Assembly: GCA_947463705.1 (NCBI GenBank)
Contig: CANHSO010000001.1
Location: 1 to 53,537 of the forward strand
DNA: 53,537 bases
Direction: 5' to 3'
From: Bacteriovoracaceae bacterium
GTDB taxonomy: Bacteria > Bdellovibrionota > UBA1018
The position numbers and the translations under genes are program-made. A model generated the notes under the pieces. That model was not told where the DNA came from. It ran no database searches and saw nothing but the letters and a program-made list of their open reading frames with translations. Positions 29,893 through 34,034 of the stretch are shown here, in pieces. Positions within the stretch are counted from its first letter, which is position 1. Each line of letters begins with the position of its first letter.

Positions 29893-29939
29893 TTTTCATA
29901 TGAAAAAATGATCAAAAATGGTATTTTTTCATATGAATG
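29893..29939 (+). promoter_or_regulatory. Duplicated TTCATATGAA palindromic operator-like sites, the second overlapping the ATPase start codon
   Basis: TTTTCATATGAAAA (29893-29906) is a perfect 14-nt palindrome. TTTTCATATGAA recurs at 29926-29937, so the ATG at 29937 starts on its last base. No Shine-Dalgarno sequence is visible. Confidence 0.45.
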
Positions 29940-31244
29940 AATCGCGAACTACCCCCATTTTTGTCTCGCTGGAAAGCCATGCGCAAGCGTAACCCCCTTA
30001 TACTCAAGGGAGCTCGCCAAGTCGGAAAAACAACCAGCCTTCAGCATTTTGGCTCTTTGGAATTCAAGACAGTCCACTGTTTTAATTTTGAGCGACAAAA
30101 GCAGATCCACTCGATTTTTGACCGTGATGTAAGTCCGGCTGCCATTGTGAATGCTCTCGGTTTGCACTCCGGAAGGCCGATCAATTTAAAAACTGACCTC
30201 ATTATTTTTGATGAAATTCAAGAATGTCCAGCTGCTCTCACGAGTCTTAAATATTTCAGCGAAGAGGAGCCCCAGGCTTTTATAGTTTGTGCGGGATCTT
30301 TACTGGGCGTTAAGCTGACGGAGGATTCATTTCCTGTTGGAAAGGTTGAAATTCGCCAGCTTTTTCCGCTGAGCTTTTCTGAATTTCTAGTAGCCATCAA
30401 CAAGCCAGATCTAGCCCAGTGGGTATTACAAAACGACAAACCACTTGTTCAGGCCATTGAAGAACAAATTCTTACGCTTTTTACTCATTACTGCGTCACT
30501 GGCGGACTCCCTGCAATTGTCCAGACCTATATCGACGAACAGGATAAACCACTCTTTGATCGTATGATCATAGTGCGCGAAAAGCAGAGGAACCTGATTG
30601 AAACCTATGAAAATGATATGGCTAAACATTCTGGAAAACTCCATTCGATGCATATTAAACGCGTATGGGAAGAAGTGCCTCGGCAACTGTCACGAATGAA
30701 CCAAAAGTTTCAATTTAAAAATGTCATACCTGGCAAAAGAGCCTTTAAAGACTTGATGGGTCCTTTAGATTGGCTGTTGAATGCCGGACTTCTGATTCAG
30801 AGTTCCATTATTAATCAGGCTCAGGTGCCGCTGAAAAGCTACACCCAGCCCAATCAGTTTAGACTTTTTTGCTTTGATATCGGAATACTGGGAGCCCTCT
30901 CTGACTTTCCAATTCAAAGTATCCTAGACCTCTCGAACGAGAATTTAATTTTCAAGGGACACTTTCTAGAAAATTTTGTTGCTCAAATTCTTCATCAACT
31001 GGGCTTTCCAGTCTACACATGGATCAGGAATACGAGCGAAATTGAATTTCTCGTTCAAAGCGAACGAGGCAAGGTGATCCCGATTGAAGTCAAATCCAGA
31101 ATCAACTCGAAAGCAAAAAGCTTGAAAGTTTTTCTCGACGAATACCCTCAAGTTCAAGATTTCGCAATATTCACTCTAGACCCAATGACAAGAGGCAAAC
31201 ATTTTTCAATCGCCCGAATAGAGGGAATTGCTCACGACTGGTAA
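29937..31244 (+). CDS. COG1373-type AAA+ ATPase (AAA_14 + DUF4143 architecture) with a C-terminal PD-(D/E)xK-like motif
   Basis: 435 aa with a Walker A (LKGARQVGKTT) and a Walker B (LIIFDEIQECP). The C-terminus (FLENFVAQ..EIEFLV..VIPIEVKS) has the E-x-D/E..E-x-K nuclease-like pattern typical of DUF4143 proteins. Confidence 0.8.
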   Translation: MNRELPPFLSRWKAMRKRNPLILKGARQVGKTTSLQHFGSLEFKTVHCFNFERQKQIHSIFDRDVSPAAIVNALGLHSGRPINLKTDLIIFDEIQECPAALTSLKYFSEEEPQAFIVCAGSLLGVKLTEDSFPVGKVEIRQLFPLSFSEFLVAINKPDLAQWVLQNDKPLVQAIEEQILTLFTHYCVTGGLPAIVQTYIDEQDKPLFDRMIIVREKQRNLIETYENDMAKHSGKLHSMHIKRVWEEVPRQLSRMNQKFQFKNVIPGKRAFKDLMGPLDWLLNAGLLIQSSIINQAQVPLKSYTQPNQFRLFCFDIGILGALSDFPIQSILDLSNENLIFKGHFLENFVAQILHQLGFPVYTWIRNTSEIEFLVQSERGKVIPIEVKSRINSKAKSLKVFLDEYPQVQDFAIFTLDPMTRGKHFSIARIEGIAHDW

Positions 31245-31409
31245 AAATTTAGGTATCTTGCCTGATTTGCTCGCCGGCGAAATCGAACGTGCTCCCAGTG
31301 AATTTCTGGACCTTCAAAATTAAACACGATAGCTAGTCCTCCGTATCTCTCTGGCTGCTAACGCTTGCCAGAGAGAATCGGGCTAGACCAAAATCCAAGA
31401 AAAAAAAGG

Positions 31410-32157
31410 AGGGTAAAAGGGTAAAAGGGCCGAGAGTTACAGGTCCTCGACGAGGCGGGAGCCGAAATTCGCGCAGCGGTCCCCGGCGTCACCATCGAGC
31501 CGAAGGGACGACTGCGTATCGCTGCCGTAGCGATCGAACGAGCCGGCCCGAACCACACCCTCCGCACTTCGGACCCAAACATTACCGATCGCGTGAATCA
31601 AACCAAAAGAGTTCCGGGAATCATCGAGGGTACGACCTGGTAAAGGCTCCCGCACGCCGTGAGCTTGATTGCCTGAGTTTGAATGGACCCAAGCGCGGTT
31701 ACGGACTTCGTTTCTATCATTTCCAAAATGGTAGGTCGTAGTCGTAATTGCCCCCTGAGCGCGTCCGCGGATCGAGTATTCTACTTCGCTTTCAGTCGGG
31801 AGCCTGAAATGTCGCCCCGTTCGCGCATTGAGCGCAGCAATAAAAGCCTGATCTTCAGCTACAGTCGTATTGGTCAAAGGGAGATCTGGGTTGGCCTGCC
31901 ATCGGGCTCGAAGTGCATTTCTCGCGCTTAAATGCCTGAGCCTGGACAACCTTTACCGCATCTCGCGCGCCCCCAACGGAGCGACTTATACCCACTTAAC
32001 AAAGCAAGCCCCGCGCCATCCTGCCGCAGTGCATGATTCGAGTGATTTCAATTAATTAGGCACGTGTGTGTCGACTTTGACCTGACTAGGGATTGCAGGA
32101 CTGTCAAAAATTTCGACACTTTAAATTGATTGAATTTAGCTAGCAGTGGAAGACTCC
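31410..32157. repeat. Repeat family copy 2 (longest): GGGTAAAA tandem, FGE-domain gene fragment and the conserved 135-nt block
   Basis: GGGTAAAAGGGTAAAAGGG (31410-31428) is shared with copy 3 (GTAAAAGGGTAAAAGGG, 34082-34098). Positions 31432-31559 are homologous to copies 1 and 3. Positions 32023-32157 are 93% identical to 29635-29769. Confidence 0.85.
31437..31949 (-). pseudogene. N-terminally truncated formylglycine-generating-enzyme (FGE-sulfatase/SUMF1) domain gene fragment
   Basis: RLPTESEVEYSIRG, NSFGLIHAIGNVWV, VVRAGSF and FGSRLV match the FGE-domain motifs RLPTEAEWEYAARG, GLYDMxGNVWEW, RVxRGGSW and GFRLV. Only a TTG start is available, with an in-frame TAA just upstream. About 80-100 N-terminal residues of the domain are absent. 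Confidence 0.6.
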
Positions 32158-32721: not shown

Positions 32722-32841
32722 CCCGACTGTTGCCCTTTTTGGTGCGCCAAATCGTACTCCGTCCCTGCCACTCCGTAGTCCATGTGGTCGGTAAATAAAT
32801 AGTCAATGATTACAAAGCATTAAGGTGGCGCATTCTGACCG

Positions 32842-32900
32842 AAATAAACTACACTTTATTTTGGTCTTGACTAAAGTAAAGTGTAGTTTATTTTAGTCTT
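32842..32900 (+). promoter_or_regulatory. Promoter embedded in a 17-bp perfect inverted repeat; probably a leaderless start for the second ATPase
   Basis: AAATAAACTACACTTTA (32842-32858) and its exact reverse complement TAAAGTGTAGTTTATTT (32877-32893) flank TTGACT (32867-32872). The -10-like TATTTT (32889-32894) ends 6 nt before ATG 32901. No Shine-Dalgarno sequence is visible. Confidence 0.5.
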
Positions 32901-34034
32901 ATGAGATATCTGGCGCCTTTTATCGTCAATGACCTAAAAAAGAAGATGGTGTTTTTAGGTGGTCCTAGACAGTGCGGTAAGACCACTTTAGCTCAGAGTC
33001 TTACCGGTCAATTCAACCGTCTGCTCTATTTGAATTGGGATAATAGCAAGCATCGGAAGGAGATTTTGCAAGAGAAGTGGGCAAAAGAAGACGCCCTAAT
33101 TGTCTTCGATGAGCTTCATAAATATAAGCTTTGGAAAAACTGGATCAAAGGCATTTTCGACGTTCAAAAACGAGAACATTCGTTTTTAGTCACAGGAAGC
33201 GCTCGTCTTGACCTTTATCGTCGAGGTGGAGATTCGCTGTTAGGCCGATACCATTATTGGCGATTGCACCCCTTTACTCTGTCAGAAAAGCCGCCTGAAA
33301 TGCCGATGGATGAGGCGTTTCGAAGACTCATGAGCGTGGGTGGATTTCCCGAGCCCTTTCTCGACGGAAATCCGCGGGAGGCGAGACGATGGCGAAGAGA
33401 GCGGTTGGATCGAGTCATTCAAGATGATATTCGCGATCTCGATTTAGTCCGGGACGTTACGCGTCTTGAACTCCTAGTTGAGCTGCTTAGGACACGAGTA
33501 GGCGGTCCAGTGGTCTATAAAAACTTGGCGGAGGATTTAGGAGTCTCTGAGCCCACCGTAAAAAAGTGGATTGAAGTTTTAGAGCGGATGTATTTGATAT
33601 TTTTAGTTTACCCCTATTCGACGAATTTGCCTCGAAGTATTTTGAAACCACCTAAAGTCTATTTTTACGACAACGGTGATGTGGATGGGAATGATGGAGC
33701 CCGTTTCGAGAATTTGGTGGCCAGTCATTTATTAAAGACCATTCACTTCCTTGAAGATCGTGACGGGTTTCGGTACCAGCTCAGATACCTCCGCGACAAA
33801 GAAGGGCGCGAAGTCGATTTCGTATTGCTCAAAGAAAAGAAGGTTTGTGAAATCATTGAGGCGAAATGGAATGATGATCGCGTGAGTGCTTTTCTTCGCT
33901 ATTACCGAGAAAAGCTCAAAGGGGTGAGAGCCACGCAGATTGTGGGACAACTGGATCGAGCCTATGATGAAAAGGCGATTCGAGTCGTTTCGGCAGTGGA
34001 CGAATTAGGCCAACTCGAGCGCACGAGTCTTTGA
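32901..34034 (+). CDS. COG1373-type AAA+ ATPase (AAA_14 + DUF4143), divergent paralog of 29937..31244
   Basis: 377 aa with a Walker A (LGGPRQCGKTT) and a Walker B (ALIVFDELHKY). A wHTH-like middle region (LAEDLGVSEPTVKKWIEVLERMY) is followed by a C-terminal nuclease-like motif (FENLVASHL..REVDFVL..CEIIEAKW). Confidence 0.8.
   Translation: MRYLAPFIVNDLKKKMVFLGGPRQCGKTTLAQSLTGQFNRLLYLNWDNSKHRKEILQEKWAKEDALIVFDELHKYKLWKNWIKGIFDVQKREHSFLVTGSARLDLYRRGGDSLLGRYHYWRLHPFTLSEKPPEMPMDEAFRRLMSVGGFPEPFLDGNPREARRWRRERLDRVIQDDIRDLDLVRDVTRLELLVELLRTRVGGPVVYKNLAEDLGVSEPTVKKWIEVLERMYLIFLVYPYSTNLPRSILKPPKVYFYDNGDVDGNDGARFENLVASHLLKTIHFLEDRDGFRYQLRYLRDKEGREVDFVLLKEKKVCEIIEAKWNDDRVSAFLRYYREKLKGVRATQIVGQLDRAYDEKAIRVVSAVDELGQLERTSL

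Follow-up and report, generated by a model that had tools for sequence, protein, structure and literature searches.

PDC-S01 has been described in surveys as an ATPase fused to a PD-(D/E)xK domain, and is reported to be fourth in frequency among the defence candidates of prokaryotes and, in rumen genomes, more frequent than any other single locus (PMC12988326; PMC13356809). PDC systems were proposed through 'guilt-by-embedding' in BREX, DISARM, and type I restriction-modification (RM) loci and remained untested in that work (Payne et al., bioRxiv 10.1101/2024.01.29.577857). Two genes of this type, here called open reading frame (ORF) A and ORF B, lie on contig CANHSO010000001.1 of a Bacteriovoracaceae bacterium (assembly GCA_947463705.1), within a stretch of 53,537 nucleotides that we analysed as a whole and refer to as the window.

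In searches with PADLOC hidden Markov models, ORF A matched PDLC04786 at E 9e-129 and ORF B matched PDLC04790 at E 6e-54, both of which are PDC-S01 models. Like PDC-S01, each is a single gene that fuses an ATPase to a PD-(D/E)xK domain, and the 150 + 150 flanking ORFs of A-type and B-type loci include no conserved neighbour. The setting in which PDC-S01 was discovered is not seen for the window copies, however: RM, BREX, and DISARM genes are absent from the island at 26.5-37.2 kb that holds them and are also rare near homologs. Both ORFs are new, and ordinary, members of a known, uncharacterised, and very abundant candidate family.

What appears to be new is that each copy forms a cassette complete in itself, in which the gene is preceded by a palindromic control site of its own and by a promoter predicted to start the mRNA at the start codon. 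We found no mention of a conserved operator, a leaderless cassette, or DUF4143 regulation in the literature that our search returned. Our favoured reading, to which we assign a probability of roughly 0.6, is that these genes are self-repressed leaderless cassettes encoding an ATP-gated, DNA-binding nuclease for genetic conflict.

Two diverged genes with a common domain architecture

An earlier note on this DNA, made from the letters alone, had described ORF A and ORF B as proteins with AAA_14 and DUF4143 domains, Walker A/B motifs, and a C-terminal E-x-K motif. Both ORFs are intact at the coordinates and lengths given there (Table 1), and the Pfam comparison that the note recommended bore out the architecture, with both domains above curated thresholds in both proteins. 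AAA_14 matched ORF A at E 1e-23 (84.2 bits) and ORF B at E 7e-25 (88.0 bits; gathering cut-off 27). DUF4143, C-terminal to the ATPase, matched at E 1e-19 (70.8 bits) and E 2e-29 (102.7 bits), respectively (cut-off 28.1).

The Walker A motif reads GARQVGKT in ORF A (K31) and GGPRQCGKT in ORF B (K27), and the Walker B motif IFDEIQ (D92-E93) and VFDELH (D70-E71). Towards the C-terminus, ORF A carries E345, E368-x-E370-F, and E384-V-K386, and ORF B carries E270, E304-V-D306-F, and E320-A-K322. When ORF A was aligned with 51 homologs and ORF B with 56, the Walker columns proved invariant or nearly so, and the nuclease-core residues (E345/E370/E384/K386 in ORF A; E270/D306/E320/K322 in ORF B) were invariant or at least 90% conserved. 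Invariant arginines are found at R214 in ORF A and at R102, R116, and R168 in ORF B. We regard the family membership and architecture of both ORFs as close to certain.

Consistent with the earlier note's view that the two copies are too diverged for a recent duplication, BLASTP aligned them at 21% identity over the N-terminal 135 residues only (E 7e-4), yet profile-profile comparison recovered homology over 315 columns (98.7%, E 4e-16) with the nuclease motifs in register. The sequences thus point to an old split between ORF A and ORF B. The start of ORF A differs between records: public gene predictions use Met15 (421 aa, P0001), and a Logan record (P0241) has the 435-aa form. The longer, 435-aa form is favoured by the conservation of M1 and W12 as well as by the geometry of the promoter.

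Confident AlphaFold2 models were obtained for ORF A (predicted local distance difference test (pLDDT) 89.4, predicted template modelling score (pTM) 0.89) and ORF B (pLDDT 86.7, pTM 0.84). In Foldseek searches, the whole chains matched ORC, Cdc6, RFC, and RuvB chains with probability 1.00. Because of these matches, together with those to the archaeal ATPases 2qen and 2fna described below, the N-terminal two thirds of both proteins are assigned as an AAA+ ATPase followed by a helical lid and a winged helix.

DUF4143 has been listed as a PD-(D/E)xK family (Steczkiewicz et al. 2012, PMC3424549). The C-terminal secondary structure of the models runs H340-354, E360-364, E367-374, E380-385, H394-402, and E410-413 in ORF A, and H265-288, E292-299, E304-311, E314-322, H330-338, and E343-348 in ORF B. 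Both are alpha-beta-beta-beta-alpha-beta cores, in which helix 1 bears an acidic residue, strand 2 a D/E, and strand 3 the E-x-K motif. The models thus agree with the nuclease fold that had been put forward for checking in this way, and the C-terminal domain of both proteins is predicted to be a PD-(D/E)xK core that keeps the catalytic E/D...E-x-K residues in the expected places. Isolated C-terminal domains gave weak, sub-threshold Pfam matches that converge on other PD-(D/E)xK families, namely DUF234 (9 of 23), NERD (6 of 23), HSDR_N (4 of 23), UPF0102 (2 of 23), and DpnII (1 of 23).

A palindromic element with a predicted promoter accompanies B-type genes

The palindrome that the earlier note placed upstream of ORF B is real: its 30-nt arms are 87% complementary and separated by a 2-nt spacer. 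We observed that B-type genes of many phyla carry a common 66-bp upstream element composed of two 30-bp units in inverted symmetry. Arms complementary at 20 or more of 30 positions lie directly upstream in 63% of the 71 B-type loci that had enough upstream sequence. The corresponding values are 0.1% for random windows and 1% for the regions preceding other long ORFs of these loci. Between about -64 and -1, the consensus reads GgCTAtTTT-(12-nt core X1)-AAAATAGCC-TTGACT-ATTTT-(core X2)-TAAAAT-AGcCAT and is followed by the ATG.

The element includes a predicted promoter at a fixed distance from the start codon. T[TA]GAC stands at exactly -34 in 42 of the 71 loci, and the -10 hexamer TAAAAT occupies -12 to -7, with a 16-nt spacer between the hexamers, so that it ends 6 nt before the ATG. 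Transcription usually starts about 7 nt after the -10. A start at that distance falls on the A of the ATG, which implies that the mRNA of ORF B, and of B-type genes in general, is leaderless. Only 1 of 42 B-type loci has a Shine-Dalgarno (SD)-like 4-mer. In the window, neither ATG is preceded by an SD-like motif, as the earlier note had said, while about 60% of window ORFs have one. A leaderless promoter design explains the missing SD better than an unusual translational repression does.

The flanks of the 30-bp unit are constant and its cores hypervariable: 42 loci hold 41 distinct X2 cores, yet X1 and X2 are mostly inverted copies of each other. Across the 42-sequence alignment, 75.5% of arm-to-arm cells are complementary, as compared with 66.2% in shuffles (none of 500 reached the observed value) and 35-46% with slid partners. 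Changes on both sides of the arms number 154 against 72 +/- 6.5 expected, and the covariation score is 0.29 against at most 0.14 in all shuffle and slide controls. This pattern indicates that the symmetry is maintained by compensatory changes.

The unit motif occurs 72 times between -75 and -1 and never within 400 nt past the stop codon. Because the motif is found upstream only, with no signal of target-site duplication, we interpret it as an upstream control element rather than one of a pair of element ends. An integron or transposon reading of the repeats was considered and rejected, as terminal inverted repeats were also lacking and the window holds no att repeat of tRNA-Ser. The direct repeats on either side do not exceed those of controls in length (8.4 vs 7.8 nt). 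DNA homology between ORF B and its closest relatives begins at 32834/32835, where the palindrome has its left edge, and extends to the stop or at most ~150 nt from it, with unshared flanks.

A rather unlikely alternative is that the palindrome acts as a nucleic-acid structure, either a cruciform in supercoiled DNA or an insulating hairpin in read-through RNA, with no protein operator. The extensive compensatory changes between the arms would suit such a structure, as would the geometry of 30-nt arms around a 2-nt spacer and the scarcity of clearly direct, non-pairing cores (2 of 42 loci); a simple terminator scan also flags the window copy. However, the element itself contains both promoter hexamers, -35 and -10, at a fixed distance from the ATG, which would leave most of the palindrome untranscribed, and the family consensus has no U-tract after the stem. 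Some loci with direct or self-palindromic cores, and a protein residue that tracks the first core base in a chemically sensible manner (see below), also speak for a protein-read operator.

Two relatives depart from the common B-type pattern. At ~8019 of locus L008, a B-type homolog (68% identity) has ATA at the canonical ATG position and the database call uses an in-frame ATG in the right arm, which may represent start-codon loss or an alternative start. An FG-GAP neighbour of this locus is no proof of close kinship to the window organism, and we do not claim movement of the B gene within one lineage. At 9400-9525 of locus L006, a second COG1373 gene, with 41% identity to ORF B, has upstream of it another palindrome of 18 bp, TTCGGAGTGAACTCCGAA, in two direct copies on either side of a TTGACT -35. 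This gene has a 38-nt leader with GGAG. The operator-on-promoter design therefore recurs with other sequences and is not always leaderless.

ORF A has a different palindrome at its predicted promoter

The palindrome at ORF A, also called in the earlier note, is real and unrelated in sequence to that of ORF B. Among the seven closest A-type genes (59-76% protein identity), we identified a conserved layout of TTC[A/C]TATGAAAAA, ~15 nt, and TGGTATTTTTTCATA[T/G]GA directly before the ATG, that is, a 13-14-bp palindrome with an extended -10. DNA homology between ORF A and its relatives begins at 29890/29895, at the palindrome, and extends to the stop or at most ~150 nt from it, again with unshared flanks. 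Covariation of this palindrome was examined and rejected: its arms vary at one position, and symmetry is kept there in only 4 of 7 genes, which leaves conservation only. More distant A-type genes vary, and several environmental ones look leaderless.

Table 1. Positions of the two COG1373 genes, their control sites, and surrounding features in the window.
Feature	Position	Strand	Description
ORF A control region	29895-29937	+	arms TTCATATGAAAAAA (29895-29908) and TTTTTTCATATGAA (29924-29937), 14/14 complementary
ORF A extended -10	29919-29927	+	TGgTATTTT; 9 nt from -10 to ATG
ORF A	29937-31244	+	435 aa; COG1373/PDC-S01 protein, PDLC04786 type
ORF A domains			AAA_14 aa 18-151; DUF4143 aa 225-387; predicted nuclease core aa 340-413
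ORF B operator-promoter	32837-32898	+	unit 1 32837-32866, unit 2 32869-32898; inverted symmetry
ORF B promoter (predicted)			-35 TTGACT 32867-32872; -10 TATTTT 32889-32894; predicted transcription start ~32901, the A of the ATG
ORF B	32901-34034	+	377 aa; COG1373/PDC-S01 protein, PDLC04790 type
ORF B domains			AAA_14 aa 14-129; predicted winged helix ~aa 186-255, recognition helix 217-229; predicted nuclease core aa 265-348
Decayed DUF4258-HTH toxin-antitoxin cassette	32209-32721	+	promoter region, toxin stub, orphan antitoxin; outside the ATPase modules
Palindrome of toxin-antitoxin remnant	32221-32235	+	TGTAACTGAGTTACA; promoter region kept
Toxin stub	32274-32336	+	MDQIRLCIDKE.., 20 codons
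Orphan MqsA/XRE-like antitoxin ORF	32296 or 32344 to 32721	+	without the usual first ~10 residues
FGE-sulfatase-derived repeat, copy 1	29488-29772	-	short form; upstream of ORF A
FGE-sulfatase-derived repeat, copy 2	31413-32160	-	long form; 170-aa truncated FGE ORF 31437-31949; between ORF A and toxin-antitoxin remnant
FGE-sulfatase-derived repeat, copy 3	34082-34345	-	short form; downstream of ORF B
vapB-vapC	34490-35091	+	VapB antitoxin and PIN toxin (Pfam)
tRNA-Ser(UGA)	37167-37256	-	right-hand island edge

The winged helix of the protein is the likeliest reader of the palindrome

We compared 161 variable protein columns with 30 variable operator positions among the B-type loci. The top column in this residue-operator comparison was residue 218, which lies at the N-terminus of the predicted recognition helix (H217-229) and pairs with -23, the first base of core X2. 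Lys218 occurs with G in 25 of 27 loci, and Gln, Asn, Pro, or Val with A in 11 of 15. Lys-G and Gln/Asn-A are textbook contacts. The association fits these contacts and is no more than suggestive of residue 218 reading the first core base.

The only DNA-binding domain that always accompanies the B element is the protein's own winged helix. Because the element travels with the gene through many phyla while no partner gene does so, self-repression by this winged helix seems the likeliest arrangement. We consider the combination of cassette and self-repression reasonably probable.

A further, improbable possibility is that the hypervariable palindrome core, kept symmetric, is more than a repressor site and serves as the private 'cognate DNA' of each COG1373 variant, its sequence or cruciform being read by a RuvB/ORC-like ATPase with a resolvase-like PD-(D/E)xK domain. 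If this were so, paralogs would be orthogonal self-marking units, and divergent arrays such as those of the window and locus L244 could coexist. The family would then be a programmable, sequence- or structure-specific, ATP-dependent nuclease whose specificity is legible from its own promoter, and Lys218-G versus Gln/Asn218-A would be the first entry of a recognition code.

The helix-turn-helix gene upstream of ORF B belongs to a decayed toxin-antitoxin cassette

The earlier note had assigned ORF B a dedicated XRE/MqsA-like helix-turn-helix (HTH) regulator. An HTH ORF is indeed present 180 nt upstream on the same strand, with a below-cut-off match to TIGR03830 (E 7e-7), and its proximity and HTH speak for such a role. 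Its context among relatives points elsewhere. Homologs of the HTH protein are 149-150 aa long, and in 4 of the 5 homolog contexts with DNA (the exception being L251) a DUF4258 gene runs 11 nt into the HTH gene in a toxin-first layout; the toxin is present in L250, L252, and L253.

The window aligns to L250 on both sides of the toxin gene, at 80% in the promoter region and 83% in the antitoxin, and ~280 nt of the toxin ORF are deleted, which leaves a stub in place of a toxin overlapping the antitoxin start. Because of this alignment, the HTH ORF is best read as the orphan antitoxin of a decayed DUF4258-HTH toxin-antitoxin (TA) cassette rather than as a regulator of ORF B. None of ~240 other COG1373 loci has a homolog of this HTH, and the ORF B operator-promoter is conserved in loci that have no HTH gene at all. 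As a conserved association, a dedicated repressor is already refuted, and for the window itself we consider it scarcely credible.

Distribution and neighbourhoods of the family

Homolog searches returned at least 8,000 candidate matches each for ORF A and ORF B. Members of the B type that share 45-64% identity are spread over Bdellovibrionota, Desulfobacterota, Gammaproteobacteria, Leptospira, Chlamydiota, Verrucomicrobiota, and Patescibacteria, a range that implies horizontal transfer under strong constraint. Family genes also occur on plasmids, and close homologs sit at different loci. On plasmids they are rare (59 and 207 of 72,556 records) and always annotated generically, and they are essentially absent from cultured phage genomes. 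In IMG/VR, A-type relatives (at most 38% identity) were found on 75 contigs and B-type relatives on none. In the Mycoplasma phage phiMFV1 record (GenBank AY583235.1, 3960-4439), an annotated ORF that resembles the N-terminus of ORF A is described as 'disrupted by an in-frame stop codon and a phiMFV1 prophage'; this would be a COG1373-like gene interrupted through prophage integration.

To describe the genomic context, we sampled 62 B-type and 62 A-type loci and the 150 ORFs nearest to each type. The B-type neighbours fall into 187 Pfam families, mostly housekeeping, and include 4 PIN, 2 MazE, and 2 further COG1373 genes and isolated PADLOC hits. A homolog of ORF B at 71% identity, for example, sits between mevalonate-pathway genes and rpsU-dnaG-rpoD. 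The commonest A-type neighbour is another COG1373 paralog (5 of 150), followed by 3 tyrosine recombinases, 2 rve transposases, and single defence hits. No co-travelling partner gene was found around either type. The earlier note had expected homologs to be enriched near defence or mobile genes; these counts lean towards refuting that for the B type, are weak for the A type, and are not decisive without a matched genomic baseline.

These neighbourhoods, together with the RuvB/ORC/RFC-like fold and the extreme abundance of the family, might suggest a housekeeping DNA-transaction or regulatory protein acting in repair, replication restart, or ATP-dependent transcription control. We consider this quite unlikely, as the patchy cross-phylum distribution at high identity points to horizontal transfer, close homologs occupy different loci, copy number varies up to paralog arrays, plasmids carry the genes, and conserved operon partners are lacking.

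A second full-length paralog lies within 6 kb at 15 of ~232 independent loci, so that paralog clustering is a recurrent feature of the COG1373 family. A metagenomic contig (L244, 1-7872) that carries the closest ORF A homolog (76% identity) has a Fic gene and an array of five AAA_14 genes, of which three also encode DUF4143. One of the L244 paralogs has its own promoter-overlapping palindrome, TTTTAGCCA...TGGCTAAAAT.

Clustering raises the possibility that A and B form a two-component system, as a hetero-oligomer or as sensor and effector. Same-strand tandems of A-type and B-type genes occur in L006, L015, L244, and the window, and the prominence of COG1373 genes among A-type neighbours points the same way. 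However, more than 90% of loci are single-copy, in sample 3300045996 the nearest homologs of A and of B are found on separate contigs, each gene has its own promoter-operator and full domain set, and 1.6 kb of unrelated debris separates ORF A from ORF B. A joint system is accordingly improbable.

The same distribution bears on whether the genes are selfish cassettes, in which operator, promoter, and ORF persist and spread for their own sake, as an addictive or restriction-like nuclease or as a homing-like element, with no antiviral benefit to the host. B-type genes look like solitary insertions in diverse contexts of many phyla, with discrete homology boundaries, a promoter design that appears host-independent, and multi-copy and arrayed occurrence. 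The GC content (0.43 and 0.46) lies below that of the flanks (0.485), and the negative outcome of the published phage test (see below) is also what a selfish gene would give. Against this, there are no terminal inverted repeats or target-site duplications and no recombinase travels with the gene, and the conserved ATPase motifs are equally expected of a gene that benefits its host. We view a purely selfish cassette as rather unlikely.

A model of self-repressed conflict cassettes

In the model that we favour, the palindrome would overlap a sigma-70-type promoter whose -10 ends 6 nt (ORF B) or 9 nt (ORF A) before the ATG. The resulting mRNA would be leaderless or nearly so, which would make the cassette expressible in many hosts. 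The winged helix of the product would bind the palindrome and repress the promoter, so that the protein is kept low. The protein itself would be a DNA-binding nuclease gated by ATP, with a part in genetic conflict; the gene would either defend the cell against invading DNA or be selfish and addictive. The two copies would have come to lie side by side through accretion in an island next to tRNA-Ser, which fits the clustering of COG1373 paralogs.

Several results weigh against this model. The literature search found no functional study and no demonstrated activity for any family member, which agrees with the earlier note's remark that the ATPase family has no experimentally defined role. One PDC-S01 representative was challenged in E. 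coli B with T4, T5, and T7 and was not among the four protective candidates (10.1101/2024.09.26.614923). The sampled neighbourhoods, mostly housekeeping and read without a baseline, show no clear defence-island enrichment. For the nuclease domain, whole-chain Foldseek searches gave no confident solved nuclease (Card1, probability 0.6), though such searches cannot test the C-terminal domain separately; no PDB relative was detectable by sequence with single proteins, full-length profiles, or the C-terminal-domain profile.

As for control, the Lys218-G association rests on ~5 clades and is confounded by phylogeny, and the arm covariation, with so few clearly direct-repeat cores (2 of 42 loci), is also expected of a hairpin or cruciform. 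Many A-type genes have ordinary SD leaders, those of gut Firmicutes with AAGGAGG, and palindrome enrichment across the A family is weak (8.49 vs 8.25).

The earlier note's 'candidate conflict module' is thus not new, being already catalogued as PDC-S01, and functional support for it is so far absent, the sole published phage challenge having been negative. Within the conflict reading, we hold a specifically antiviral role to be possible and no stronger than tentative. What the 66-bp element does offer is a set of predictions, namely a transcription start, a DNA target for the winged helix, and a residue-to-base reading, which make the family experimentally tractable. If the leaderless, self-repressed design is true, it would show how a gene that moves horizontally can bring along signals for its expression in hosts of many phyla.

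The island and its repeats

Both genes lie in an accessory island at ~26.5-37.2 kb, between a glycosyltransferase gene and tRNA-Ser/serS. Its order is an IstB-like ATPase ORF, a SEC-C/ParS-type protein, a short FGE repeat, ORF A, a long FGE remnant, the TA remnant, ORF B, a short FGE repeat, vapBC, and an ORF6N-DnaA_C gene. The vapBC pair, FGE debris, and tRNA-Ser that the earlier note reported around the two genes are all present. An att-like repeat of the tRNA-Ser 3' end was not found in the window, and an Rfam scan of the window returned nothing beyond two tRNAs. GC content is slightly below that of the flanks. The island gives the impression of a place in which small mobile and TA modules collect and then decay.

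Three colinear FGE repeats bracket ORF A and the segment formed by the TA remnant and ORF B. Because copies 1 and 3 share a ~480-nt internal deletion relative to copy 2, the short form (~285 bp, made of the 5' region and the last ~45 FGE codons) appears to have been duplicated itself.

On the left of the island, the minus strand at 26922-29339 holds the IstB_IS21-like AAA ATPase ORF (295 aa), without an IstA transposase partner, and a protein of 488 aa that has a SEC-C motif at its N-terminus and an antitoxin-type domain, Xre_MbcA_ParS_C, at its C-terminus, with no adjacent toxin evident. On the right, a 124-nt direct repeat (88% identity; 35134-35257 and 36792-36915) lies in an intact 149-aa ORF with a hydrophobic N-terminus (36645-37094, minus strand) and in a truncated copy of it (35005-35244, minus strand). 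The repeats flank the ORF6N-DnaA_C gene (35729-36619), as though this gene had come in with a duplication of its target. A perfect palindrome with 21-nt arms, TGAAGCATCTTAAGGTCACAA/TTGTGACCTTAAGATGCTTCA, lies just upstream of this gene at 35661-35703, and a second copy of its core lies inside the gene at 35950-35982. A similar ORF6N-DnaA_C gene and vapBC adjoin the ORF A homolog of locus L005.

Comparison with known systems

The best whole-chain structural matches of ORF A are the archaeal Walker-type ATPases PAB2304 (2qen, E 8e-9) and SSO1545 (2fna, E 4e-8). They align with a template modelling (TM) score of ~0.5 on the target, at a sequence identity of only 14-15%, and belong to different Pfam families. 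We take 2qen and 2fna to be Pfam ATPase_2 proteins with DUF234, a domain that the C-terminal region of ORF B also matches weakly. To our knowledge, they have no defined function either.

Orc1/Cdc6 and RuvB share the fold of AAA+ ATPase, lid, and winged helix with the first two thirds of both ORFs. Unlike ORF A and ORF B they have no nuclease domain, and nothing in our data points to origin function or to Holliday-junction branch migration for the COG1373 proteins. Archaeal orc1/cdc6 genes adjoin inverted repeats (ORB elements) that are bound by their own product. This arrangement resembles the operator beside ORF B, though the COG1373 palindrome overlaps a predicted promoter.

STAND/Avs and CARF-nuclease effectors, such as Avs3 (8dgc) and Card1 (6xl1), have in common with ORF A and ORF B the design of an NTPase or sensor domain fused to a PD-(D/E)xK effector. 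In contrast to them, our Pfam scan found no TPR, LRR, or WD40 repeat sensor and no CARF domain in either ORF. The structural matches are weak (Avs3, E 3e-4; Apaf-1, E 4e-4; query TM score at most 0.36; Card1 as above). Membership of the STAND NTPases, defined by NACHT/NB-ARC and C-terminal repeats, was considered and rejected, as there is no repeat domain and these matches are the weaker ones.

In its control region, the cassette is most reminiscent of the autoregulated promoters of type II TA and defence genes, which likewise place a palindrome over the promoter of a gene that encodes a DNA-binding domain. Here, by contrast, the putative regulator, the ATPase, and the putative effector would be one polypeptide, translated from an apparently leaderless mRNA.

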